A stretch of DNA of 41,686 bases. Origin: Macrostomum lignano. Lineage: Eukaryota. Positions 12,349 through 41,686 of the stretch are shown here, one piece after another; positions within the stretch are counted from its first letter, which is position 1; every line of letters begins with the position of its first letter. The position numbers were made by a program, and so were the translations under genes. Below the pieces are notes generated by a model that saw nothing but the letters and a program-made list of their open reading frames with translations, was not told where the DNA came from and did no database searches. The stretch covers positions 1-41,686 of the forward strand of contig NIVC01004573.1 of NCBI GenBank assembly GCA_002269645.1. Reading direction: 5' to 3'.

Positions 12349-15300
12349 TGCTGGGTTTTCAGATGTTTTGACGCAAAAAACGCAAATTATACTACTATCT
12401 GAAAATGAAGTAAGTAGTATACAAAAACGCTATCCTAAGCGTGATATATGCCAATATGTAGTTGTAATAATCCATGTGCTCATATTAATTCCATGTACAT
12501 TAATCCCTATCTATCCCAAATTGGATATGTACATTAATCCCTATCTCAAATGTCCATGTCTATCCCCAAGTCTATATGTACACTCACATTAATCTACAGT
12601 GTCATCCCCAGCGCGCGCGCACCAAAATTACATGTACAATACTACATGTACGCAGAGGCGAGAATTACTAATCTCATCTACTACCAAATGAGTCAACTAA
12701 CAGTGTAGCCTACAACGTAAATGTATATTTCCAATGTACATTTCTCAGACAGATTTGAATAATACTGGTCGGAGTCTTTATGTACATCGATAGCCTCTAT
12801 ACTCATATCCGCTACATACCCCAAAAATTAGGTATGTACATTTTCACCCTCGGAGACTGTAGGTTTGAATATGCTGATAATTTATTCAAAATCACTTATA
12901 AAATACACATACTTTCATATAGAGGCGGGCCTGTACAAACTCTCGCCAAGCGATGGGGTGGGGGTTGCGTCATCCAAGCCTCTCCCCAAGTCAGACCCCA
13001 AATGCAGGACTGTGTTGAAGCAGTGCTTTATATTTCTATATTGACAGTGTGGATGATACAAGACCTTTAATTGGTAATTATCAACTGCTACTGCTTTACG
13101 GTATATCCTCACCCCTCGAAGCCCCTATGTTGCATGTTGAATCACCCTTTATCTCCGGCCATATTCAAAATTCAACCCTGTTCGAAAACAGCCACCCCTC
13201 CGATGTTTACCAGACACAGCGCAGACCCCATAGCAAATTTTAACACTCGCCCCTGTTCTCTCTGCCCCACCCCCTTCTAAATGCCAAGGAATTTCGACCC
13301 TCTCTCCATTTTCAGTGTACAGACAGATCTTTCCACAGCACAGATCCTATATTAAACTTCAAAACCCCTCTCTTCTCCGATTACGTCATCCATGCCGCCC
13401 CAGTTAGCAAGATACCAACTTTTAATGCACACATCAACCCCACGAATCTGAGCAAATCCGAGTCAACCTCTACCTGCATTGACAAACCCCAGCTGCATTT
13501 GTAAATGTACACAGCCTATGAATCAGTGTCTCCTCCGCATACAATTCCGAGACTGAATTCTATGTATGTTCAAATAAATACTTTGACACTATAACCCATG
13601 CGGTATACTAGAAGTAGTGAAGTCCACCCGCCCAAAAACGTGCTGCTATGCCAATTCTATCGCCTCCCCTGCCTTCTCACTTCAAGCTTTCAGACTTGGT
13701 CTTTGAGACGGTCGGTTTAATCTGTTAGAAGCAGGAATGAATCATGCACTGACCTCTCCATACAAAGTAAAGTTGGAATTTCAGACAAAAAATTTGGTTA
13801 TTTTAAAAGCTAAATGACTAGAAATGCACATTTTTCATTAAAATGCTGCTTTTTACAGTTTTTTTACGATTTTAACCTTAAAATGCAGACTTTGTTGATC
13901 AAAATCAGTAGTTTCATCACTAGAAACCATACTTTCAACAGCTAATTTGTCCAAATGTCGCTTTCAACTTGACCTTAGACTGCTTTTAAGCAGGAATGAA
14001 CCCCACACAAACATCCACAAGCCAGCCCAAAATCATCCAAAGACATGGCTATTGAAGCCTAAATTGCTAGAAATGCGCATTTTTTTCATAAGAAAATACA
14101 AATTTTCACAGTTTTTATGCATTTTTACGTTAAAATGCAGACTTTATTGATCAAAATCAGTAGTTTCATCACTAGAAACCATACTTTCAGCAACTAATTT
14201 GTCCAAATATCGCTTTCAACTTGACCTTAGACAGCTTTTAAGCAGGAATAAACCCCCACGAACATACACAAGCTAGCCCAAAATCATCCAAAGACGGCTG
14301 TTGAAGACTAAATTGCTAGAAATGAGCATTTTTTCATAAGAAAACACAAATTTTCACAGTTTTTACGCATTTTTTACGTTAAAATGCAGACTTTATTGAT
14401 CAAAATCAGTAATTCATCACTAAAAACCACAATTTTAACACAAAATTATCACAAATGCTACTTCTGGAACTCTGAGACAGCTTTGAGCAGGAATTATAAT
14501 CGCACACGGATTACCCGAGCCAGTCCAATATTCCACTGAAGCCAGGGTTTTTTAAAGCTGAATTGTTAGAATTGCTCATTCTTTCGTTTAATAAATGACA
14601 ATTTTCACAGTTTTATTATTTTCTAACGTTAAAATGCGAAATGTATTGGTCAAACTTAGTAGTTTCATCCCAAAAAGCCATAATTTCAACTGCTAATTTG
14701 TCCAAATGCTGATTTCAAAGTTGGCAAGAGACAGCTTTCGAGCAGGAATGAGTCACACACTGATCTCCATATGCACACCCCGGCCCAAGTTGGAATTCCA
14801 CCCAAGACATTTTCATTGAAAGCTAAATTACTAGAAATTGCACATTTTCGTTTTAAAAAGGTCAATTTTCACAGTTTTTACTCTTTTTAACGTTAAAATG
14901 CTGACTTTATTGAACAAAATTAATCACTTCATCAGCAGAAACCATAATTTTTACAACTTAATGCTGTTTCATCACTCAAATGTATGTATTTGGTACGTGT
15001 AATACCCCTCAAGAAGTCAGGGAAGGGATTATTCTTGAATATAGGGTTAAAACGTAAAGTTTGCTATAAACCTAGCTATAATAATTTTAACATATACAGT
15101 CTGCGAAGCGGTCCGTTGATTTCGATTGACATTTAAACTGTCCCTCCCAGACCTCTCTCTCTCCTTCTGCACCCACCGAGAAAAGTGACTCATGCGGCAA
15201 TCAGTTTGACAGGTTTAGTATATTACTGAATTGGCAAAACAGCCAACACACAATGTTCATTAGACTCGTCTTCACAGCACAGACCCATGTAGAACAGAAC

Positions 15301-17943
15301 CACTCGTCCCTGTCTCTCTGACCTTACCATTTCTAACTGTCAAGGAATTCCGACCCTCCCTCTCCAATTTCAGTGTACAAACAGATATTTTCACAGCACA
15401 GACTCATATATTGAGCCTCCTCCAACCAAAACCCTATCTTGATTACGTCATCCACCTCCCCCATAGGAGCAGTTAGCAAGAAACAAAATTTTTCGATGCA
15501 CATATGAACACTGTGAACCATGCAAAATCGCACATCTACGGGTCGATTTTGATTGACAATTTAATACCTTTTGTTGATGCTGCTGTGTACAGTAGTCTTA
15601 TTTCCGAAGCTCCTAGCAGTCATCTTTTAGATGTGGTGAATCAGTGTTGTTTTTGCCAACTTTACATCTTGATTCATCCTCCAAATTCTTCAACTCTGAC
15701 CATATTCAATAATTCAGCAATTCTAACAATTCAGCTTTAAAAAACCCTGGCTTCAGTGGAATATTGGACTGGCTCGGGTAATCCGTGTGCGATTATAATT
15801 CCTGCTCAAAGCTGTCTCAGAGTTCCAGAAGTAGCATTTGTGATAATTTTGTGTTAAAATTGTGGTTTTTAGTGATGAATTACTGATTTTGATCAATAAA
15901 GTCTGCATTTTAACGTAAAAAATGCGTAAAAACTGTGAAAATTTGTGTTTTCTTATGAAAAAATGCTCATTTCTAGCAATTTAGTCTTCAACAGCCGTCT
16001 TTGGATGATTTTGGGCTAGCTTGTGTATGTTCGTGGGGGGTTTATTCCTGCTTAAAAGCTGTCTAAGGTCAAGTTGAAAGCGATATTTGGACAAATTAGT
16101 TGCTGAAAGTATGGTTTCTAGTGATGAAACTACTGATTTTGATCAATAAAGTCTGCATTTTAACGTAAAAATGCATAAAAACTGTGAAAATTTGTATTTT
16201 CTTATGAAAAAAATGCGCATTTCTAGCAATTTAGGCTTCAATAGCCATGTCTTTGGATGATTTTGGGCTGGCTTGTGGATGTTTGTGTGGGGTTCATTCC
16301 TGCTTAAAAGCAGTCTAAGGTCAAGTTGAAAGCGACATTTGGACAAATTAGCTGTTGAAAGTATGGTTTCTAGTGATGAAACTACTGATTTTGATCAACA
16401 AAGTCTGCATTTTAAGGTTAAAATCGTAAAAAAACTGTAAAAAGCTGCATTTTAATGAAAAATGTGCATTTCTAGTCATTTAGCTTTTAAAATAACCAAT
16501 TTTTTTGTCTGAAATTCCAACTTTACTTTGTATGGAGAGGTCAGTGCATGATTCATTCCTGCTTCTAACAGATTAAACCGACCGTCTCAAAGACCAAGTC
16601 TGAAAGCTTGAAGTGAGAAGGCAGGGGAGGCGATAGAATTGGCATAGCAGCACGTTTTTGGGCGGGTGGACTTCACTACTTCTAGTATACCGCATGGGTT
16701 ATAGTGTCAAAGTATTTATTTGAACATACATAGAATTCAGTCTCGGAATTGTATGCGGAGGAGACACTGATTCATAGGCTGTGTACATTTACAAATGCAG
16801 CTGGGGTTTGTCAATGCAGGTAGAGGTTGACTCGGATTTGCTCAGATTCGTGGGGTTGATGTGTGCATTAAAAGTTGGTATCTTGCTAACTGGGGCGGCA
16901 TGGATGACGTAATCGGAGAAGAGAGGGGTTTTGAAGTTTAATATAGGATCTGTGCTGTGGAAAGATCTGTCTGTACACTGAAAATGGAGAGAGGGTCGAA
17001 ATTCCTTGGCATTTAGAAGGGGGGGGGCAGAGAGAACAGGGGCGAGTGTTAAAATTTGCTATGGGGTCTGCGCTGTGTCTGGTAAACATCGGAGGGGTGG
17101 CTGTTTTCGAACAGGGTTGAATTTTGAATATGGCCGGAGATAAAGGGTGATTCAACATGCAACATAGGGGCTTCGAGGGGTGAGGATATACCGTAAAGCA
17201 GTAGCAGTTGATAATTACCAATTAAAGGTCTTGTATCATCCACACTGTCAATATAGAAATATAAAGCACTGCTTCAACACAGTCCTGCATTTGGGGTCTG
17301 ACTTGGGGAGAGGCTTGGATGACGCAACCCCCACCCCATCGCTTGGCGAGAGTTTGTACAGGCCCGCCTCTATATGAAAGTATGTGTATTTTATAAGTGA
17401 TTTTGAATAAATTATCAGCATATTCAAACCTACAGTCTCCGAGGGTGAAAATGTACATACCTAATTTTTGGGGTATGTAGCGGATATGAGTATAGAGGCT
17501 ATCGATGTACATAAAGACTCCGACCAGTATTATTCAAATCTGTCTGAGAAATGTACATTGGAAATATACATTTACGTTGTAGGCTACACTGTTAGTTGAC
17601 TCATTTGGTAGTATATGAGATTAGTAATTCTCGCCTCTGCGTACATGTAGTATTGTACATGTAATTTTGGTGCGCGCGCGCTGGGGATGACACTGTAGAT
17701 TAATGTGAGTGTACATATAGACTTGGGGATAGACATGGACATTTGAGATAGGGATTAATGTACATATCCAATTTGGGATAGATAGGGATTAATGTACATG
17801 GAATTAATATGAGCACATGGATTATTACAACTACATATTGGCATATATCACGCTTAGGATAGCGTTTTTGTATACTACTTACTTCATTTTCAGATAGTAG
17901 TATAATTTGCGTTTTTTGCGTCAAAACATCTGAAAACCCAGCA
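12349..17943. mobile_element. Foldback-like structure: ~2.23 kb inverted arms (12349-14576 and 15716-17943) around a 1.14 kb spacer; non-coding
   Basis: Arms are reverse complements. Mirrored ORFs in the track sum to 30292 (12780..13070 vs 17222..17512). Only a few substitutions seen (ctcatctact/ctcatatact; ccccacccc/ccccccccc; atgctgct/atgcagct). Confidence 0.9.
13790..14950 (+). repeat. About 5 diverged tandem copies of a ~250-bp AT-rich unit (inner left arm running into the spacer; mirrored in the right arm)
   Basis: Marker aaaatgc(a/t/g)ga recurs at 13880, 14132, 14381, 14631 and 14895. Confidence 0.85.
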
Positions 17944-29700: not shown

Positions 29701-31946
29701 ACGGGTATTCAAACCATAGCAACGGTTTCAAACCATAGCAACGGGTGTTCAAACCATAGCAACGGGTCTTCAAAAACCATAGCAACGGGTGTTCAAACCA
29801 TAGCAACGGGAGTCACAGCAACAGTTTCACAGGTTTAGCAATGGCCACTAAATTATTTTAATGTTGGTCTGTTTATCTAGTTTTTCGGGGTTTCGGACAA
29901 ATCACTTGTTAGAAGCCTGGGGAGGTCGGTGAACTTACAACACGCAGATGAGAAGAGGCAGTGCCGCCAGTGTGGTTGTGGCTATGGCTATTACTATGGT
30001 TTGTGTTATGCGTAGCTGTAGATGCAGTTAAACCAGCGTTGTTTCCATGGTTACCAGCGCCGCTATTTGGCGCCAATTCATTAACAGCTGAACTCACGCT
30101 GGTGCCGGAGCGGAAGTCAACGGACATCAGGCGGCGGCGCTGCACAGTTTCCTCGTGGGTGAGGAAGAACCGGGAACACACCTGGGCCAAGGCGATCGCC
30201 GACCGGTCCGTCAGGCGGTTGTTGCTCAGCGACAGGTGCAGCAGGGTCCGGTTGGTGCGCAGAGACTGGAGCGAGTGAACAGGTGTTTCAGTATTTGCAC
30301 CTTTAAGCTTTAGCATGATTGGAAGATTCAGGGTAAGAAAGAGACGGGAGGCAGTTCAGTCCGCTTGAGACTGAATGCAGCGATATTGAAGAAAAGTTGG
30401 CATATCGGGAAGGATCTGGCATATCGGGAAAGCATCTGGCATATTGGGAAAGGATCTGGCATATCAGAAAGGATCTGGCATATCGGGAAAGGATCTGGCA
30501 TATTGGGAAAGGATCTGGCATATTGTGAAAGGATCTGGCATATCCGAAAAAGGATCTGACATATCGGGAAAGGATCTGGCATATCGGGAAAGGATCTGGC
30601 ATATCCGGAAAGGATCTGGCATATCGGGAAGGATCTGGCATATCGGGAAAGCATCTGGCATATTGGGAAAGGATCTGGCATATCAGAAAGGATCTGGCAT
30701 ATCGGGAAGGATCTGGCATATCCGGAAAGGATCTGGCATATCGGGAAAGGATCTGGCATATTGGGAAAGGATCTGGCATATTGTGAAAGGATCTGGCATA
30801 TCGGGAAAGGATCTGGAATGTCAGGAAAGGATCTGGAATGTCAGGAAAGGATCTGGCATATCGGGAAAGGATCTGGCATATCCGGAAAGGATCTGGCATA
30901 TTGGGAAAGGATCTGGCATATCGGGAAAGGATCTGGCATATTGGGAAAGGATCTGGCATATCGGGAAAGGATCTGGCATATTGGGAAAGGATCTGGCATA
31001 TCCGGAAAGGATCTGGCATATTGGGAAAGGATCTGGCATACCCGAAAAGGATCTGGCATATTGGGAAAGGATCTGGCATATCGGGAAAGCATCTGGCATA
31101 GCGGGAAAGCATCTGGCATATCGGGAAAGGATCTGACATATCGGGAAAGGATCTGGCATATTGGGAAAGGATCTGGCATATTGGGAAAGGATCTGGCATA
31201 TCGGGAAGGATCTGGCATATCGGGAAAGGATCTGGAATGTCAGGAAAGGATCTGGAATGTCAGGAAAGGATCTGGAATGTCAGGAAAGGATCTGGAATGT
31301 CAGGAAAGGATCTGGCATATCGGGAAAGGATCTGGCATATTGGGAAAGGATCTGGCATATCGGGAAAGGATCTGGCATATCGGGAAAGGATCTGGAATGT
31401 CAGGAAAGGATCTGGAATGTCAGGAAAGGATCAGGAATGTCAGGAAAGGATCTGGAATGTCAGGAAAGGATCTGGAATGTCAGGAAAGGATCTGGAATGT
31501 CAGGAAAGGATCTGTCTGAGTACCTTAACCAGCGAATCCACCCCAGCGTCGCCGATGCAGTTCGAGGACAGGTCGAGCGACACCAGCTTCGACGGCGTCT
31601 CGCGCAGCCCGTCCAGCTGGATGGCCATCGCTGAGACGGCCTTGTCGCTAAGTTGGTTGAAGCGCAGGCGCAGCTTTGTGAGGCTTTGTGGCGGTTGGAA
31701 TATTGGCGGTTGGTTAACACTGTCTTACAGAGAAAGTAGAGACTTGTATGTTGCTTGGGAAACTGGCAGGCACTTACTTGCTCTCAACTCGAATCAGCTC
31801 CGCGTAGACTTCTTCATCTGCCACGGGTCCGTTTGACTCCAGAGACAGAGAGCGCAGGGCTGGCAAGCGTCCCAATAGCTTAGCCAGGGTGTCAACAATG
31901 CTGGCATCGGCCGCCACTCGCCAAAGGCTGATGATGGTCAAGGGAG
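20780..31946 (-). CDS. LRRC71: LRRC71 orthologue, 5'-partial; exons 31946-31778, 31683-31524, 30265-29939, 24551-24438, 23401-23326, 23245-23148, 22415-22298, 21579-21464, 20875-20780
   Basis: Translations ISLWRVA...LRSLSLESN, LRLRFNQLSD...LVSLDLSSNCIGDAG, LRTNRTLLHLSLSNNRL...FFLTHEETVQRRRLM, HPLLE...LVPGNYALALLNLSRNHITDRG...IKYQ and GNPF...RDPL follow the LRRC71 motif order as I recall it. All 8 introns are GT-AG with matching phases, ending at TGA 20782-20780. Confidence 0.88.
20944..20990 (+). mobile_element. Possible truncated end of a hAT/Charlie-type non-autonomous element
   Basis: CAGGGGTCGGCAAACT...AAGGGCCAGA resembles common hAT-MITE termini. No partner TIR found. Confidence 0.3.
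22501..22803 (-). mobile_element. Dispersed SINE-like repeat, copy 2 (intronic in LRRC71)
   Basis: Homologous to 5919-6258 with indels. B-box-like GACTCGATTCC and an A-rich tail on the minus strand. Confidence 0.7.
23520..24295. repeat. 22-bp pyrimidine-rich minisatellite (CTCTCACCACCCTCTCCCCTGT), LRRC71 intron
   Basis: Tandem units read directly. Confidence 0.95.
24885..25207. repeat. 32-bp minisatellite with an internal palindrome (GATTATC-GAGG-GATAATC), about 10 copies
   Basis: Period 32 (a24903 to a24935). GATTATC and GATAATC are reverse complements. Confidence 0.93.
25715..25940. repeat. 34-bp minisatellite (GATTGGCTGAGACATTCGATTGGTTGTGGTGTCT), about 6-7 copies
   Basis: Period 34 (25722 to 25756). 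Two ATTGG motifs per unit. Confidence 0.92.
26690..29810. repeat. 21-bp satellite (CAAACCATAGCAACGGGTGTT), about 3.1 kb, LRRC71 intron
   Basis: Tandem units read directly, with occasional 20-bp units and recurring variant blocks. Confidence 0.97.
30398..31513. repeat. 20-bp minisatellite (GGGAAAGGATCTGGCATATC, variant GGAAAGGATCTGGAATGTCA), LRRC71 intron
   Basis: Tandem units read directly. The array ends about 10 bp from the splice donor at 31523. Confidence 0.96.
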
Positions 31947-31982
31947 CTTGGAAAGTAAGTTGCCTTCACAGGTCGATTAAAG

Positions 31983-32854: not shown

Positions 32855-32963
32855 GAAGCTTCCTTGCTGATGTACATGGGAAGTACATGCATCTTTCTCA
32901 AAACCTGTGAGGACCCCAGACACCCTCAGCTAAATACGCATTTTGGCTTTGCATTGGACTACT

Positions 32964-33480
32964 AAGGGCCGGCAGATCCGGGCGTTTTTGGAGGTGGGGT
33001 GGGTGTCAACCCTCCTCACCTCTCATTGGTCGGCGCGTGGCGCCAAGCGCCGTCCAGGCGCCGAGCGCCCACCGGGCGCCAGCCGCAGGCGGCCCGCCAA
33101 GCGCCGTCCAGGCGCCGAGCGCCGACCAGGCGCCAGCCGCAGGCGGCCCTACCGACATGTACACCCTCCCCAGCCGCAGGCAACCCTCCCCAGCCGCAGG
33201 CGACCCTACCGACATGTATGCCGCAGGCGCACCCTCCCGATATGTACCCCGATATGCCCACCCTCCCGATATGTACCCCGATATGTTTGCCCTCCCTCCA
33301 GAGCAGCAGGCGCCCATGCCGCAGGCGCCCCACTCTCTCAAGCCGCAGGCACCCCGAGTGTACACTCTCCCGAGCCGCAGGCACCCGAGTGTACACTCTC
33401 CCATGCCGCAGGCACCCCGAGTGTACACTCTCCTCAGTACACTCTCCCGATATGTAGTCAATGATATTAGGCTAGTGAAA
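32964..33480. repeat. GC-rich block of short direct repeats (GCCGCAGGC core about 9x; two ~56-bp units; GTGTACACTCTCC units)
   Basis: Direct repeats read at 33041-33148 and 33340-33450. Inverted pair TGGTCGGCGC (33027) / GCGCCGACCA (33119). Confidence 0.7.
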
Positions 33481-33949
33481 ACTACTTATAGTAGGTGAAA
33501 TTGAGTATATTTACATAAAAAGTATAAAAAACATATTGGTAGGTGTGAATAATGATGCATAATGCATCATATTAAAATGTACATATTGGAGCATAATAGG
33601 AATATGAGCAGCAAAAAACACACAACGTAGGCGCATATTATTGATATATTGACAGAAAAGCAGGTGAAATAGACAAAATAATACAAAGCGGGTACTGTAA
33701 GCGCTAATAAAACATAGGTGGAAATACACACAAGTATAATAATACAGGAAAATTACATAGCATATAATGTAGGCAGATTTTAAACATTACATTTTGCATA
33801 TTAACCCGCAGGCACAAATTTCAATGCATAGGATAAAATACACACACTGGAAGTTAAGTATAATACAACATATGCATGCAAAATTAAGCATATAATGTAG
33901 GTGCAAAGTCAAATATCCAGCCCAGGATATTCGAGACACGCCCCCAGAG

Positions 33950-34198
33950 CCAGGGCCGGGGGATCCCAATGTACAGTGCGGGCGGAGTAACATAGAGAAA
34001 TTCAATTCCTCCCCAGGGCCGGGGGATCCTTAGCGGAGTACAGTGCAGGCAGAGAGGAGTAACAGAGACCGCCCCAATGTACAGTGGAGGTAGCAGACCG
34101 CATACAAAGAGAATTCTCCCCAGGGGAGCTTCCAAATAGGTTTTATTATCCCAAGTGCGGCGCAGACAGGGGAATCTCGGTCAGGGGAGACTGTAAGG
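33950..34198 (+). repeat. Left inverted repeat (visible matched part)
   Basis: Reverse complement of 41428-41675, e.g. ccaatgtacagtggaggtagcagaccgcatacaaagagaattctcccc. Differences are mostly homopolymer length. Confidence 0.93.
34142..34147 (-). terminator. AATAAA poly(A) signal in the left repeat, serving the leftward genes
   Basis: tttatt on the + strand, mirror of 41481-41486. Confidence 0.5.
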
Positions 34199-34366
34199 GA
34201 GACAATTTTCTCCCTGAATTAGTCTTTTAACCCCCCCCTCAATATACTCAGTGTATACTGTGGGGTTTCCCTAAACCACGTACAGGGAGAAAAAACCGCA
34301 AACCCAGTCAACCTCCAGCCGCTCCTCAGTGTTGTTTCATGCCGCCTCCTCCTCAAGGGTCTCGAA

Positions 34367-35344
34367 TCAGTTGTCGGCCGACTGCAATGGGGAAATTAAA
34401 ACAATTAATGTAGAAAGAATATATGCTTTGTATATGATAAGACGAATTGTGTATACAGTGTAATATCTTACCATAGGTGCATCCCACTCAGTAGGGCGCG
34501 CTCCCGGACCGGCCAGATATGCCTCAGTGTCGGAGGCATGCGAATTGCGCCCCATCAACCAATCTTGATGTAGTGTCTCTGCCTCCAACACCTCCCGTAG
34601 GTCAGCCCCCCTCGACACCACACCAAAGTATCGAGAACCCGATTAAAGGCCTCGACAAAGGTGTCTTGGGGAGGCAGGCCGTCGGGTGGCGAGACCTCAA
34701 CCACTCGATATCACGGTGAAAAAAGGAGGCCACAATACGCGGAAAGCGATCGCGGACCATGGCGATCTCCTCGGCCATATTCATTTCCTCATCACCAAAG
34801 AGAAGGATCGTGGTGGCTGATGATATCGAGGCTTGGCTGGAGGCGCAGAGGCAGAGACACCAGAGTCGGCAGCGGCAGAGTCGGCATCGGCGGCAGAGGT
34901 GGCAGAGGCAGAGACACCAGAGTCGGCAGAGGTGGCAGGGGCGGCAGAGGCTGAGACACCAGGGTCGGCAGCGGCAGAGTCGGCATCGGCGGCAGAGGTG
35001 GCAGAGTCGGCATCGGCAGAGGCACCAGAGTCGGCAGCGGCGGCGTTCACACCCCCTCCGATAGTCAGCGGTGGGAGGTCGAAAATCTCAGACCCGGTGT
35101 CGCTATCGTAGCTATTACCCCACGGGATGTCGAAAATCTCAGACCCCGGGTCGCTATCGTAGGTAATAGCCCACAAAGCCCAAGATAAGGCTATATCAGC
35201 ACCCCAATTTTCAGGATAGTCAAGTCCGCCGTTTTCTATGCCTATGGGGATTATATGTTCGGGTATTTCACCGTCGAGGGAGGCTAATTCTTCAGATGGG
35301 CGGTTTTTATCCCAGAGGGTGGATAGAGCTCGGCGGCGGGACAT
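34367..35344 (-). CDS. Orphan element gene (acidic N-terminus, Ala/Ser/Asp repeat linker, predicted helical C-terminus); frameshifted in this assembly; intron 34471-34382
   Basis: ATG at 35344 with TATATAA at 35421-35415. ORF 34781..35344 can be chained to the frames FGDEEMNMAEE..., DGLPPQDTFVEAFNRVLDTL and VVSRGADLREVLEAE...DAPM by three single-base additions. Donor ATG|gtaaga, acceptor cattgcag|TCGGCCGACAACTGA. Confidence 0.5.
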
Positions 35345-35456
35345 GTTGGAATCAGCAGACTATAGTATCAGGGCTAGGATTAGGGTTTGGCTCTCTAGAG
35401 GCTGGATAGATTAGTTATATAGGAAGCCCCGCGGGGTGGCGCGAGCCAATAGGGAA

Positions 35457-35993
35457 CTACCAGCGCTGACTCTCGTCAAACAGATTTTCCCAGGGCGGGG
35501 ATTGGTAGGGTTTGAGACCCGCAACCTGGAGATTTTCTTCCTCCTCCTCAGTCCTGGCTACCGGAGAGGTCTCGGTCCTGGCTCGTTTGGCTGGCGGCGG
35601 GGCCTTGGGTTTGAAGAGCTTGCCCAAACGGGCGGCAAACATCCGGCGCCACAGTTCCGGCGTGAATTCAATTGTGTAGCGCCAATTGAACTTTGGATCC
35701 CGATTAAGCCAATTGCGCCGCAAACGAATCCTCCCCTGTGAAGCTTCTGCTGCCTTGAAGCTGCCCAACACGACTCTCTTGTCCACGTGAAGACGTGCCG
35801 CAGCCTCCAGGTCAGGGCGTGCAGCTTCGAGCTTCTTCCACTCGACCTCGCTTAAATAGATTGCTGGGAAGCCGTCCTTCCACACTCCAGCTTCGTCGGT
35901 GTAGAGCCGACGGATTTCAATTAAGTCATGCTCCGTTTCAAATGTGGGCTTCCGCGCCACAAAGTTTTCGTATAGAGCGATAGAAGAAGACAT
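35457..35993 (-). CDS. PC4/Sub1-like ssDNA-binding protein, probably two tandem PC4-like repeats (178 aa)
   Basis: LIEIRRLYTDEAGVWKDGFPAIYLSEVEWKKL follows the PC4 pattern (IDIReyw.d..Ge.kPg.kGIsL..eqW..L). A second copy reads IRLRRNWLNRDPKFNWRYTIEFTPELWRRM. TATATAAA about 45 nt upstream. Confidence 0.65.
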   Translation of the reverse strand: MSSSIALYENFVARKPTFETEHDLIEIRRLYTDEAGVWKDGFPAIYLSEVEWKKLEAARPDLEAAARLHVDKRVVLGSFKAAEASQGRIRLRRNWLNRDPKFNWRYTIEFTPELWRRMFAARLGKLFKPKAPPPAKRARTETSPVARTEEEEENLQVAGLKPYQSPPWENLFDESQRW

Positions 35994-36037
35994 GATTAGC
36001 AGCAGCAGCAGAGAGCTCTCCGACAGCCGCGCAGCGC

Positions 36038-36159
36038 TTTATATACCCCCAGATGGAGGGTGGGAGGGTGTGATTTTGGGGGTGATTTTGAGTGATTCTG
36101 GTTGGTTTTTTGGTGATTTGGCCAATAATAGACGAGCTAAGCAGGTTTTTAGTATATAT
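36038..36159. promoter_or_regulatory. Divergent (bidirectional) promoter
   Basis: TATATAAA on minus (36045-36038) and TATATAT on plus (36153-36159), each about 45-55 nt before an ATG (35993, 36211). Between them lie four GTGATT motifs and GCCAAT at 36121. Confidence 0.55.
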
Positions 36160-36210
36160 TCGGAACCCTAGAACAGGGGTAGAGAGATAATCCTTCTCTC
36201 TGTATGCAAA

Positions 36211-39200
36211 ATGGCTAAACGCAGCGCAGCATCGACCACTTTCCTGGCTGACAAGAGGCAACGTCTTTATGGTAAGTTTTAATTAATTTCTATCCGGTTG
36301 TATATCAGTCTAGACGGGTTTTGAGTTGCTGCAGCAGGGAGCTTCTATGAATTGGCAGGGGCAGGAGCAAGAGGGGCGCGATAGAGAGTTGATAAGAGCA
36401 GACTAGACAGGCGGGGGCTAACAAAGAGTTGAGGGGTTTTCCGCTGTGACAGCTTCAGGCGCATGCGGGCTATAGAATTCAGAGTGCTGCGACAGGGAGC
36501 TTACGAGTTTGAGTAGGGAGGGGGCGCAAACAAAGAGCAGGCCGGATGCGGCTAGGGTTAAAAAAATTGCAGAGCATTTCAACAGGAGGGCTTGCGTGCG
36601 AGGGGTTATGCGTGAGCGCAAACAAAGAGCCAGGCCAGATAAAAAGTGGTGGGCGCTCTGACAGCTGCAGGAGCATGCGGGAATTCAGAGTGCTGCGACA
36701 GGGCATGCGAGTTTGAGTAGAGAGGGGGCGAAAACAAAGAACCAGGCAGGATGCGGGCTGGGGTTAAAAAATTGCAGAGCGTTTCAGCAGCAGGGCATGC
36801 GTGCGAGGGGTAGCGCAAACAAAGAGCCAGGCGGGATGCGGCTGGGGTTAAAAAAATTGCAGAGCGTTTCAGCAGAAGGGCTTGTGCGGGAGGGGTAGCG
36901 CAAACAATGAGCCAGGCCGGATGCGGCTAGGGTTAAAAAATTGCAGATTCGTCTCGGCAGGGCGGCATGCGTGCGAGGGGTAGCGCTAACAATGAGCCGG
37001 GCCGGGCTGGATAACAGCTGCGGGCTGGGGTTAAAAAAATTGCAAAGCGTGTCGGTGAGAGGGCCTGAGCGCAAGGGGGGAGCGTGAACAATGAGTCGGT
37101 TGGAGTCTGATCCTGGGGTGCCACGAATTGACAGATTCTTCTGGTTTTTTATCTCCTTGTGTTTTTTCAGACGCGTTTGTCCGCCTGCCCAACCTGAATC
37201 TGTTACCGGACCGGGTGAGTTATCCAACCCCCCTATTCCCCAGGCAGATCCGGGCTGACTCACACTCCCCCTTCATTCCCCCTACAGGTTTTACGGCCCG
37301 GCTGGATAATCAGCGCGACCTGCCCAAGTTTAGGGCAAAGGGTGTTGAGTATGTGGTAAAGCTAGATGACACCGAAGATTTACGCGAGACATTTGCCAGC
37401 ATGCTCGAAGTTTTCAAGCAGGATTTGGCTGGTGATGACTTTATGGCGGCTAAATTCGAGAGTGATAATATGCTCAAAGCAGCCCACACTCCTCCGGTGC
37501 GTGCAGCCCGCATGACAGCAGAGTTGTTGTTTAAGCACATTGACAAGATTGTGCAGTCAGACGCAAGCGTACTGTCGAGCAACTTTTCTATCCGTCTGCT
37601 AAAGGCCTGGGTGCCTCGAGGTGGATGTGCTCTCGAGAACAAACATCTAGAGGAGCGGCATGCCTTCTCCAAGCACTATGTCCGCATCACCAACACGGAC
37701 AAGAGATGCCTGCTGCGAGCTCTGGTCGTGGCCTGCGCCTACCTGCAATTTGTGGCCAAGCGCATCACCGAGCAGGTGTGGCGTACAATCAGAGCCAATT
37801 CGCCCAAGCAGACTAAGCTGGCAACTGAGCTGCAAATTGAGGCTGGACTCTACACCGTGAGTTGTGAACTGATTTTCCTGATAAGAATTTCACTATCATG
37901 GAATACTAAAAGATATAATTTTTACTCAGTATCATGGAATACTAAAAGATATATCTTCTGATAAGAAATTTTACGATAAGGATTACTAAAATAAATATTT
38001 TGCCTCCACACAGACTCATCAAATCGTCTCGCAGGCCGGTCCTTTTGGGGTGGATGTTCTGCCCGAGGCGGTCCGGGCCCTGAACCGTCTGTATCCAGGC
38101 CACGATTTTGGTGTACGAGTGTACAGGGCAGAGGAGGCCAACACGTGCATATTCAACCTGCCTGGCACTGAGATTCTGCACCTGCACCTGGTTGAGCAGC
38201 ACTTCAATGTGGTCACCAAGCTGTCAGCGTTTTTCGGCAGCCACCACTACTGCGCCAAGTGCGAGATGGCCTACGATTGCGGCAACGCCAAGCACAAGTG
38301 CGCCGACGCCTGTAGCACCTGCAAGACTCCGGGCTCAAACTGCACAGTCAACCGTGCATATGTAAGATGCCAGGATTGCGGTCTAAATTGCTATAATGCT
38401 CAGTGCCTAGAGAATCACAAGCGCAAGAATAAGGCGGGCAGATCTCGCTGTGATTCAGTCCACGTTTGCGGCACGTGTGGCTATCTAGAAGAACTGAAAG
38501 TAGGCCACGCCCCCGAGCATCAGTGTGGTTACGCCAAGTGTCCAGTCTGCAAGCAGTACGACGAAACTGCCACCCACGAGTGCTTTGTCACCCCGCCCAA
38601 AGCCAAAGAGTCTAGCGCCCCGTATGTTTACTATGATTTCGAGACGTACGTGGACTCTGGCAAGCAGCACCGGGTACACTTGGTTACGGCTGCCACCTCC
38701 TGCGAGGCGTGTCCCAAACTCTTCCCCAGGCCCCGCTGCGGCGCGTGCGGGGGGTTGCACAGCTCAGCCAATTGCATTGCGGGACGCGATTTGGCGCGCG
38801 ATTTTACGAGCTGTGTCTCGCAAAATGACTGTGCCTGTGGGATGCGAGAGTTTGTATCTGTCGGGCCGCACTCTATCGATGCCTTTTACTGCTGGCTGAC
38901 TAGTGTGTTCAAGCAGGGGGCAATTGCAATTGCGCACAATGGCTCTGCGTATGACGCATTCCTCCTGCTCGGCGCCCTACTCAACGGACTGGCCAAGAAG
39001 AAGCCGCAGGTGATCTTCCAGAACAGCCGCCTAATGTACATGAAGTGCGACAAGATCACGTTCAAGGACAGCCTCAACTTTATCCCTATTGGTCTGGCGC
39101 AATTCCCAAAGGCGCTTGGTTTGGGCACCCAACTGACCAAAGGAGATTTCCCGCACGTGTTCAATCAGCCACAAAACTGGGGCTACGTAGGTCCCTACTG

Positions 39201-41422
39201 CTCAATTGATATGTACGGCGGGAAGAAGAATAAGCAGCACGACTCCATCGCTGACTGGCTGGCCAAGCAGGAGGGCCGAGTGTTTAATTTCAATAAGGAG
39301 TACCTGGACTATTGCCTGCAGGACACGCTAATTTTGCGGGAAGGCTGTCTAAAGTACACCCGCCTGATTAAGGACATTTGCGGACTGGACGCATTTGTCC
39401 AATCCAACACCATTGCGGGCTTGGCCATGGCTGTATTCACCACCAAGTTTATGGAGCCCAACACTCTTGGGGTGATTTCCCGCCGATCAGATGTGCAGTC
39501 GCACAAGGCGCGTGCTGGCTTGCACATTTGAATGCAACCGAGTTTGGCGGCCGTTGCGGACAGCCGACTCTGGCGGCGAGGCTTTCGCCATGGGCCGTAA
39601 GGTGGACGGTTTCGACCGGAGAGTAGGACTGTGCTGCAGTTTCATGGCTGTTTCTACCATGGCTGTCCCAAGTGCTTCCCCAACGGCGACGTGCTGCACC
39701 CGCTCAAGAACCAGCCAATGCGGGCGATTTATGAGGAGACTGAGCGCTTCACTCGCGCTCTCCACTGCCTACAATGTACGTGTTCTGTGGGAGCACGACT
39801 ATCAGGGCGAGGGAGCGCCAGTCCAGCAGCCTATTCGCCTGGAGGAAGCCCTGTTTGGCGGCCGCACCGAGGCTTTTGTCCCGCACGCCGAGGCCACCGA
39901 GACTGTGGAGCTGCGCTATCGGGATGTGGTAAGTTTTTTCAAAATTTCTCTTACACACACACACACACACACACATGCGCGCGCACACACACACACACAC
40001 ACACAGTTAACATGCGTTTGAGTTTAGCCTACTACTTTTCTCTAGGTGTCGCTCTACCCGACTGTCAACAAGTTTGACAAGTACCCTGTCGGGCACCCGG
40101 TTCACCACCCCGAGCCTCATCTACTGGATGAGCTGCAGCTGGCCCGGTATTTTGGTATCGCCGAGGTGTCGATTCTGCCGCCGACCAATCTCCACATCCC
40201 GCTACTGCCCGCCAAGATTAGCAAGAAGCTGGTTTTCGGCCTCTGCCGCGTCTGCATGGAGACCCAGTGCAGCAGCGAGTGTACACACACTGACGCTGAG
40301 AGAATGCTCCGCGGTACATGGGCGACCCAGAGCTCCACAAGGCCCTGCAGTTGGGATACAAGCTGCAGTCAGTTCATGCCCTGGCCTATTGGACCGAGAC
40401 TCGGACCGGGCTGTTTGCAGATTATGTAAACACCTTTTTGAAGCTCAAGGCCGAGTCTAGCGGTTCGCCGGGGATGACTGAGGACGCAAAGACTGCCTAC
40501 ATGGCGAGCTTTTTCGAGCGCGAAGGCGTCCGGCTGGAAAAGGTCGAAGAAAATCCTGGCCTGCGCTTTGTGGCCAAGATTTTTCTAAACTCGTAAGTCT
40601 GGGTTTGTACAGTGGTGGACCGTGTTTTTCTACTTACAGTAGTAATACTAAATCTTTTTTCCCTGCAGGCTCTGGGCAAATTCTGCCAGCGGGATGACTT
40701 GACCTCCACAGAGATTGTGGACAGTTACGAGGCGTGGCTGCAGCGCCTGACAGACCCGTCCATCAAAGTCAAGTCGTGCGAGCCAATAGGAGAGTGCTTC
40801 ATGATGCTTGAATACAAGCCCCGAATTGGTGTTGCTGGCGAGCGGGCATTCAAGTACGCCAATGTACCTATTGGAGTTTTCACCACCTCCCATGCCCGTC
40901 TGCGCTTGTACGAGGCTCTTGAGGGTCTAGGAACCCGCGTGATTTACGCCGATACTGATTCGTAAGTTTTTCACACTGTCTGTCTGTCTGCTTCGCTCCC
41001 CTAAACACTTTATTCTCCTCCTCCCCAGGGTCGTATACCGGTGCTCTCCAGGCCAGTACGAGCCTCCCAGCGGTTCGAGTTTGGGGCAGTGGACTGACGA
41101 GGTACCTGCCGGCTGCCGCATGGTACAGTTCACCACGGGAGGCCCCAAGCTCTATCGCTATGTGGTGGAGAAGCCCGACGGGTCGCTGTACTCGGTGCTC
41201 AAGTGCAAGGGCATCCGAGTCACGCCCGAGATTGCCGAGCGGGAGGCGGAGCTGCAGGAGATTCTGCGCCACGGCGGGACTGTACGGCTGCCCCAGGCAC
41301 AGTTCAGGCGCGACAAGGCCAGCTGTACAATTCGGACCCTGGAGATGGATAAGACATTCCAGCGCGTCATGACTAAGCGAGTGTATGGGTCTGGCAGCCG
41401 CCCGTATGGCTTTCGGGAGTGA
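36211..41422 (+). CDS. Protein-primed family B DNA polymerase (pPolB), about 1270 aa; exons 36211-36271, 37171-37214, 37288-37856, 38035(or 38014)-39928, 40046-40592, 40669-40961, 41029-41422; contains frameshifts
   Basis: ExoI YYDFETY, ExoII AHNGSAYD, FKDSLNF, KGDFPH, ExoIII YCLQD, LFGGRTE, motif A YRDV|VSLYP, YPVGHP, motif B KIFLNS|LWGKF, motif C YADTDS|V, then LGQWTDE, GGPKLYRY and KCKGI. Canonical gtaagt/gtgagt donors and pyrimidine-rich acceptors. Exon 1-2 phase is uncertain. Confidence 0.92.
36415..37095 (+). repeat. About 8 diverged copies of an ~85-100-bp unit inside pPolB intron 1
   Basis: Recurring gcaaacaaagagccagg...gatgcggct(a/g)gggttaaaaaaattgcagag, e.g. near 36526, 36618, 36815, 36899 and 36984. 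Confidence 0.8.
39953..40005. repeat. (CA)n microsatellite in the pPolB motif-A intron
   Basis: Read directly, interrupted by tgcgcgcg. Confidence 0.95.
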
Positions 41423-41427
41423 TAAGG

Positions 41428-41675
41428 CCTTACACAGTCTCCCCTGACTGAGATTCCCCTGTCTGCGCGGCACTTGAGATAATAAAACCTATTTGGAAGC
41501 CCCCCTGGGGAGAATTCTCTTTGTATGCGGTCTGCTACCTCCACTGTACATTGGGGCGGTCTCTGTTACTCCTCTCTGCCTGCACTGTACTCCGCTAAGG
41601 ATCCCCGGCCCTGGGAGGAATTGAATTTCTCTATGTTACTCCGCCCGCACTGTACATTGGGATCCCCGGCCCTGG
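41428..41675 (-). repeat. Right inverted repeat, starting 5 nt after the pPolB stop; probably continues past the window
   Basis: Reverse complement of 33950-34198. Confidence 0.93.
41481..41486 (+). terminator. AATAAA poly(A) signal for pPolB, inside the right repeat
   Basis: About 60 nt downstream of TGA 41420-41422. Confidence 0.6.
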
Positions 41676-41686
41676 GAGGAATGCGG

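Follow-up and report, generated by a model that had tools for sequence, protein, structure and literature searches.

What kind of element can carry its own replicative DNA polymerase to many sites in an animal genome when it encodes neither an integrase nor a capsid? The question is raised by contig NIVC01004573.1 (C4573) of the 764-Mb assembly GCA_002269645.1 of Macrostomum lignano, a free-living flatworm; the entire contig, 41,686 nucleotides long, is the window analysed here. Toward its right end lie a spliced gene that encodes a family B DNA polymerase of the protein-primed type (pPolB) and two leftward genes, one for a PC4-like protein and one an orphan, between terminal inverted repeats (TIRs). 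The explanation that we favour, with rather more confidence than doubt, is a semi-autonomous nuclear replicon of Polinton descent, self-copying but dependent on a DDE integrase supplied in trans. An initial annotation of the sequence had proposed a nuclear replication-only element with polymerase, terminal protein and single-stranded DNA-binding protein, which the data support, and of the forms it suggested for such an element the helper-dependent Polinton satellite is the best reading. Neither of the contrary outcomes that it named came true, these being integrase, capsid or ATPase genes just beyond the contig end, or, for which the matches listed were consulted, genomic copies revealing a deletion derivative of an ordinary full-length Polinton.

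The boundaries of the element are wider than first drawn. The initial annotation saw an inverted repeat enclosing 7.2 kb, and this repeat is real (33950-34194 versus 41434-41675, 245 nt, 97% identity), but it is only the inner part of the TIRs. The terminus pattern and comparison with 20 other stretches place the left terminus at 32958, where the sequence reads ACTACTA, and the right TIR is truncated by the end of the contig. Contig C3516 represents the same insertion site, is 99.5% identical over 8.9 kb and has both ends; the copy there is about 9.7 kb long, with a 6-bp duplication and no additional genes, so that only further TIR lies beyond position 41686. Counting the window, 21 stretches were examined, and 19 of them have TIR pairs. 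In the left TIR a polyA-like signal (34142) is oriented toward the leftward genes, and an AATAAA at 41481 lies in the right TIR downstream of the pPolB stop codon. At all termini a block of about 20 nt after ACTACTA (32965-32984 in the window) varies modularly between copies while both of its sides are fixed; it may serve as an origin or give the ends their recognition specificity.

Searched across the genome, the terminus pattern gives 207 matches (95 forward and 112 reverse), and the reversed control gives none. Pairing drew on the 100 matches listed (107 were not), of which 72 pair to form 36 elements and the other 28 are single or extra ends. Thirty-one of the 36 span 8-10 kb, three span 3.2-6.7 kb, one spans 11.3 kb and one 40.6 kb. 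An exact 6-bp target duplication is present in 17 of 17 two-ended copies, and all of the hexamers are different; these comprise 15 of 20 fetched loci that have the pattern at both ends and two that were read directly, three lacking one end. Insertions of the family are 8.4-9.8 kb long, with TIRs of 0.7-1.4 kb in 15 two-ended copies, and host DNA flanks all 17, some of them on contigs longer than 800 kb. UniRef proteins of Macrostomum lignano are 83-99% identical to the element polymerase. The initial annotation also considered a free nuclear linear plasmid, which is wrong as a description of the observed state because the copies are integrated with target duplications. Such a plasmid, a contaminant contig or an assembly artefact might explain why the window stops inside the right TIR, but the flanking host DNA and duplications refute it as the sole state, and about 70% of the sampled words are present in 20 public runs from eight studies, all of one organism; we regard this group of explanations as scarcely credible. 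A free form existing beside the integrated one would be part of the replicon that we favour.

The genes between the TIRs indicate what the element could do for itself (Table 1). The spliced pPolB proposed by the initial annotation is confirmed by matches to PF03175 and by six GT..AG introns, and its two leftward genes also stand. The polymerase has the domain order TP-vOTU-Exo-VSR-Pol (TP, putative terminal-protein domain), with motifs Exo I-III and Pol A-C present. A model of the polymerase of a sister family (see below) is a phi29 polymerase by fold, and its top viral fold match is an adintovirus polymerase. Among 71 relatives the TP serine is conserved in 66, the vOTU cysteine in 70 and the vOTU histidine in all 71; the window copy retains both vOTU residues, and the VSR domain is conserved. 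In the sister-family model (pLDDT 75) a small alpha/beta domain carries the TP serine in the loop that joins its second helix to its last strand, which is where linking residues are placed in the available text of 10.1101/2024.03.18.585575. As modelled in the whole protein, the topology of the terminal-protein domain and the position of the serine would fit a PRD1-like linking residue, followed by the vOTU domain.

Table 1. Coordinates of the element's features in the window.
Feature	Coordinates	Strand	Evidence
Left target site duplication	32952..32957	.	Same hexamer flanks both sides in C3516/L011
Left TIR, about 1.24 kb, begins ACTACTA	32958..34194	+	Terminus pattern; 93% to C3516 right TIR
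Orphan gene, one intron (34382-34471)	34367..35344	-	Frame broken in window copy
PC4/Pur-alpha-fold protein, 178 aa	35457..35993	-	Two tandem PC4-like repeats and disordered tail
Divergent promoter region, PC4-like/pPolB	35994..36210	.	TATA-like box at 36039; putative function
pPolB gene	36211..41422	+	PF03175 E 1e-14; phi29 polymerase E 1e-8, Vsr E 1e-3 (profile); sister-family model
pPolB intron 1, 899 nt	36272..37170	+	GT..AG; equivalent spliced in X10, X18 and X11, not X12
pPolB intron 2, 73 nt	37215..37287	+	Spliced in X10, X18 and X11
pPolB intron 3, 157 nt	37857..38013	+	Spliced in X10, X18 and X11
pPolB intron 4, 117 nt, interrupts Pol motif A	39929..40045	+	Spliced in X10 and X18, not listed in X11
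pPolB intron 5, 76 nt, interrupts Pol motif B	40593..40668	+	Spliced in X10, X18 and X11
pPolB intron 6, 67 nt, directly after YADTDS	40962..41028	+	Spliced in X18 and X11, not listed in X10
Right TIR, inner ~250 nt, ended by contig end	41434..41686	-	Remainder in C3516

The PC4-like protein is probably a single-stranded DNA-binding protein, as judged from its predicted fold. The Pfam PC4 profile matches the window protein at E 0.13 and the sister-family homolog at E 1e-5, and it is above cut-off for the latter and for two further homologs. The model (pLDDT 73) contains the four-strand plus helix PC4 repeat; Foldseek matches it to human PC4 at E 2.7e-3 with a root-mean-square deviation (rmsd) of 2.0 over 65 residues, and comparison with VIA Pur-alpha gives Z 8.5 and an rmsd of 4.1 over 119. 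Among the matches listed, homologs with 26-30% identity occur at a distance of about 1 kb from the integrase genes that resident Polintons carry, and from this proximity we judge the gene to be of Polinton origin. A search of IMG/VR with the PC4 alignment gave no relative. Short PC4-like homologs were seen in Logan and JGI contigs (P0148, P0151 and P0152) and may mark related elements in other organisms. On contigs C1753, C1176 and C157 there are clusters and tandem repeats of PC4-like genes from both families.

The orphan is the only unassigned open reading frame (ORF) in copies that carry the polymerase, and it has no Atlas match and no real Pfam match. It has an open frame of 337-376 aa in other copies and is missing from a large subtype, so that the family consists of orphan-bearing and orphan-less subtypes. 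A 1227-nt deletion in the orphan was considered as a splicing event and rejected, since it is present in DNA as well. In the window copy the frame of pPolB is broken in exons 4 and 5, as is that of the orphan. The two assemblies of the window site (C4573 and C3516) differ at 22 gap columns, and because 17 of these adjoin the same base, the frame breaks owe at least partly to read error.

The family is both expressed and maintained. Three putative RNA runs, from three studies, were compared: each of the six pPolB introns is joined in two of them or in all three, and no pPolB intron is joined in a DNA run. One orphan intron is joined in two putative RNA runs, the intron matching 34382-34471 being spliced in X10 and X11 and not in X18 or X12. 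The intron 4 site is shared by 19 of 21 loci, at lengths of 65-121 nt, and those of introns 5 and 6 are kept in all 21 loci, sister family included, with varying lengths. Exons 3-7 of pPolB are open in 13 of 21 copies. The dN/dS ratio of pPolB exon 4 is 0.09-0.16 and that of the PC4-like gene 0.14-0.40; the orphan gives 0.29-0.32 between subtypes and 0.72 in one close pair. The polymerase, the PC4-like protein and the orphan are under purifying selection, and the element family is transcribed and spliced, alive rather than fossil.

We then have to ask whether these are simply deletion derivatives of a full-length Polinton, non-autonomous and moving by cut-and-paste with the polymerase as a passenger. 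The outside relatives of the polymerase share about 30-37% identity with it and have integrase and ATPase genes on long contigs, the nearest (about 30%) being intronless, from which we conclude that the lineage descends from a full Polinton. Some copies are, moreover, broken or have internal deletions. However, the genome also contains a sister family, with 58-63% pPolB identity and saturated synonymous sites, that has the same divergent pPolB/PC4 layout and shares introns 5 and 6, and because of this common layout we take the reduced element to be an old lineage rather than a recent deletion. The sister family ends in ACTAC; four of its ten end pairs are 9.1-9.5 kb apart, another five lie closer together and one spans 15.1 kb. 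A query with the polymerase of the nearest outside relative gives 308 in-genome candidates, the best 30 of which are all of spliced types, and selection and splicing have been maintained. Two long exceptions are nested insertions and were rejected as full-length parents: the 15.1-kb sister copy (C1945) contains a foldback element that is also found at 12349-17943 in the window, and the 40.6-kb pair (C271) contains a Polinton with an AGTAGT end (L024:6029 onward). We therefore consider a simple deletion derivative very unlikely. The Polinton nested in C271 has ORFs resembling adenovirus core proteins.

The phylogeny suggested by the initial annotation places the element among Polinton pPolB2 polymerases, in a tree without bidnaviruses. 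In this FastTree analysis of 56 rows both families form one long-branch clade (support 100) beside coral-type and unnamed Polinton polymerases (99), a position to be read with caution for the long branch, with two rows less than half filled and with the in-genome intronless polymerases not included. IMG/VR gave no relative by single-sequence search with a polymerase exon or by the terminal pattern, and alignment searches recovered distant full-type elements only. Of 81 outside loci the 26 longer ones contained no mini element with TIRs, a result that is uninformative because most of them are incomplete.

Mobility must be supplied from elsewhere if the integrase is truly missing. No integrase, capsid, ATPase or protease gene was found in 18 copies, in which 91 ORFs from eight full-type Polinton contigs matched pPolB only, and there is no space left between the TIRs for an integrase; the lack of integrase and virion genes noted in the initial annotation is thus borne out in the window copy and in these 18. 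As a control, the same 91 queries detect capsid and protease in the flanks of copy L017 (C4072), whose insertion lies within a full Polinton's major capsid gene, with the protease gene downstream in the flank. This is the only one of 18 sites of its kind, giving no support for Polintons as preferred insertion sites. The orphan was ruled out as an integrase because orphan-less copies have the same duplication. Among the matches listed there is no full-length parent that has these ends or this polymerase. Resident Polinton genes are plentiful, with at least 73 capsid, 150 integrase and 150 ATPase matches; the Pfam profile Pox_A32 found no ATPase genome-wide, a false negative in view of the result with a Polinton ATPase query. 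The M. lignano genome holds unusually many full Polinton families.

Because the 6-bp stagger is fixed, a Polinton-type integrase is indicated. Insertion could instead be the work of a non-Polinton DDE enzyme (from a long terminal repeat (LTR) retrotransposon, of Ginger type or domesticated) or of the element's own VSR nuclease together with host repair. The conserved VSR domain speaks for this, as does the end motif, which is unlike those of the two full-length Polinton families whose ends were read, both of which begin AGTAGT, and unlike the three motifs given in the accessible part of PMC8097293. But repair-mediated insertion does not give an invariant 6-bp duplication, which counts against the VSR route. 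The duplication, which all 17 copies show, is characteristic of the Polinton integrase (PMC8097293, as far as available), and VSR inserts occur too in integrase-bearing relatives (PMC10748475, likewise). We think insertion by such other means improbable.

A different source of the integrase is suggested by a second class of elements with the same ends. Half of the end pairs (18 of 36) have no pPolB or PC4-like match between the ends among the matches listed, where the PC4-like search reached as low as 26% identity over the best 150 of 262 candidates. Most of the 18 pairs are 8.1-9.9 kb long, and their left and right ends are identical or nearly so. One of them, C625:278529-287788, was sampled over 1.1 of its 9.3 kb. 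It has a palindrome centred no more than 10 nt from the midpoint between the ends, with arms identical at 160 of 160 positions and a GC-rich central hairpin (z -5.1). The midpoint piece and a piece 1.0-1.6 kb from the centre are apparently non-coding, and neither matches the polymerase class or any locus compared. The C625 element also contains (AC)n tracts. The second class thus has shared ends, other content and probably a palindromic structure throughout, and may be either a non-coding satellite or an integrase-carrying partner.

In the latter case the element would be bipartite and mutually dependent, with a polymerase segment and an ACTACTA-ended palindromic partner of two arms of about 4.6 kb and a hairpin, which supplies the integrase and perhaps more. 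The number and length of the pairs that lack the polymerase genes and the unrelated content of C625 are consistent with this, and it would account for ends unlike those of the resident full Polintons. On the other hand, both pieces of the single pair sampled are apparently non-coding; no integrase, capsid or ATPase was found within the 18 pairs among the best 150 of 1726, 126 of 195 and 150 of 340 candidates, respectively; and the polymerase class itself yields fold-backs, as in C1090, which has two PC4 arms, so that the second class may be non-coding and parasitic on the system. In the 11.3-kb pair, too, the PC4 arm occurs twice in inverted orientation. We hold this bipartite arrangement to be a minority possibility, though a serious one, and give the same tentative standing to what it would amount to, a capsid-less, two-component self-synthesizing transposon consisting of a spliced replication segment and a hairpin-centred, integrase-supplying partner. 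The initial annotation's thought of a segmented bidna-like virus gains from the second class with the same ends; nothing bidnavirus-like was seen, although no query for parvovirus-type genes was made. Inverted duplications of the PC4 arm were observed in C1157 and C1158 as well as in C1090.

Several points weigh against a replicon that borrows its integrase from resident Polintons. No helper has emerged among them, and both families with ends read have the other end motif; two further stretches, L036 and L037, taken in search of helper ends, contained none. The free linear form, the linkage of the terminal protein and the activity of the polymerase are predictions from sequence only. The 18 end pairs with other content could hold an integrase, and a full-length parent is possible, both among the 107 unlisted ends and in view of a third group of spliced pPolB genes on contigs C485, C583 and C3161. 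Redundant assembly may have inflated the copy counts, given that the window's own site is assembled twice. The RNA runs were assigned as RNA by guess, none being so recorded, and the splicing evidence comes from contigs only, mapped on copy L014 rather than on the window copy. The genes of the third group are apparently spliced and are related to both families.

The replicon that we favour would work as follows. Host RNA polymerase II would transcribe both arms outward from the central promoter region to the polyA signals in the TIRs. The vOTU protease would cut off the terminal-protein domain, which would prime at the (ACT)2 ends; the pPolB would then yield free linear copies by strand displacement, and the PC4-like protein would coat the displaced strand. 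It is the domain set, together with the (ACT)2 ends, that points to protein-primed strand displacement. Recombination and folding back among variants that replicate together would produce mosaic copies, ends that mismatch and palindromes with a duplicated arm. A retroviral-type DDE integrase acting in trans, most likely from a resident full-length Polinton, would insert copies with a 6-bp stagger. Nuclear life, with passage through the germ line instead of in particles, would have allowed introns to be gained and retained. The closest copy changes segment by segment along the 14 copies compared (without a formal test), and the ends of five of 17 copies mismatch at 7-15 of 27 nt although the target duplication is perfect. 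These patterns and the arm-duplicated palindromes fit a recombining pool; for the first two, gene conversion after insertion could be an alternative source.

How the element relates to known systems depends on which half of a Polinton is considered. It resembles the Polintons/Mavericks with VSR-bearing pPolB2 in the TP-vOTU-Exo-VSR-Pol order, the long TIRs (which fall within the 100-1500 bp used to define Polintons), the tandem end motif and the 6-bp duplication, and its PC4-like gene is homologous to one in resident integrase-bearing Polintons. As described in the available parts of PMC8097293 and PMC10748475, Polintons are 13-25 kb long with intronless genes, a 6-bp duplication and the end motifs (AGT)2, (AG)3 and (AC)3A, and according to the available text of PMC5499653 the integrase belongs to them "by definition". 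In contrast, the element is 8.4-9.8 kb long, ends in (ACT)2A, and lacks the integrase, major and minor capsid, packaging ATPase and adenain; its pPolB has six spliceosomal introns, whereas introns are absent from intact vertebrate Mavericks. In its workings it corresponds to the replication half of a Polinton, and because it lacks the integrase and virion genes and departs in size and in having introns, we do not classify it among Polintons in the strict sense.

Like the fungal cytoplasmic linear plasmids (pGKL-type), the element is a capsid-less replicon with TP-vOTU-pPolB and TIRs, its linear form being predicted. Unlike them, it is nuclear, spliced, integrated and in an animal, and has no transcription apparatus of its own. 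Those plasmids derive from Polintons through loss of the virion module (10.1101/2024.03.18.585575, available text), and the smaller plasmid depends on a helper (PMC13348850, available text). With the Bidnaviridae, whose encapsidated ssDNA genomes carry parvovirus-type capsid and NS genes, the element shares a Polinton-derived pPolB with fused TP, but it is integrated and keeps the vOTU Cys/His, which bidnaviruses have lost (10.1101/2024.03.18.585575). A further comparison is with non-autonomous TIR transposons (deleted Polintons or those like miniature inverted-repeat transposable elements, MITEs), which the element resembles in its dependence on an integrase in trans; it differs in retaining an expressed and selected replication module, so that a helper is needed for insertion only. 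Non-autonomous Polintons are known. Phage satellites and transpovirons offer an analogy, having their own replication genes and borrowed mobility functions. Phage satellites usually encode their own integrase, however, and in the flatworm element the integrase is the borrowed function; transpovirons have a Tlr1-type helicase-polymerase and are carried by giant viruses. The segments of Bidnaviridae share terminal sequence, a parallel only if the second class proves to be a partner.

The definition of a Polinton requires both polymerase and integrase. Here an old, expressed and selected lineage has retained a Polinton's replication half alone, yet inserts with the Polinton signature, a natural separation of replication from integration and virion formation. 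It offers the fungal linear plasmids, products of capsid loss from Polintons, a nuclear counterpart, and if the second class does carry the integrase, it would be a segmented Polinton. To our knowledge the way in which Polintons replicate and insert is yet to be demonstrated in an animal. A laboratory flatworm with RNA interference makes two things testable, protein-capped linear Polinton DNA and the action of Polinton integrases in trans. The arrangement is not described in the literature searched, including the available portions of PMC6431247 and 10.64898/2026.10.13.758929, and Repbase, which lay outside this scope, may already catalogue it; the main text of PMC5730564, as far as available, has neither "Polinton" nor "Maverick", and its supplements may list repeat families. 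We found no description of a segmented Polinton in the same literature.

The remainder of the window has features of its own. Adjoining the insertion site, at 31460-31960 on the minus strand, are exons of what looks by eye like a leucine-rich-repeat host gene. The contig starts with telomere-like TAACCC-variant repeats (9-233) and is rich in minisatellites of 16-34 nt. The foldback element shared with C1945 is 5.6 kb long, with perfect inverted arms of about 2.2 kb and internal repeats of 252 nt.

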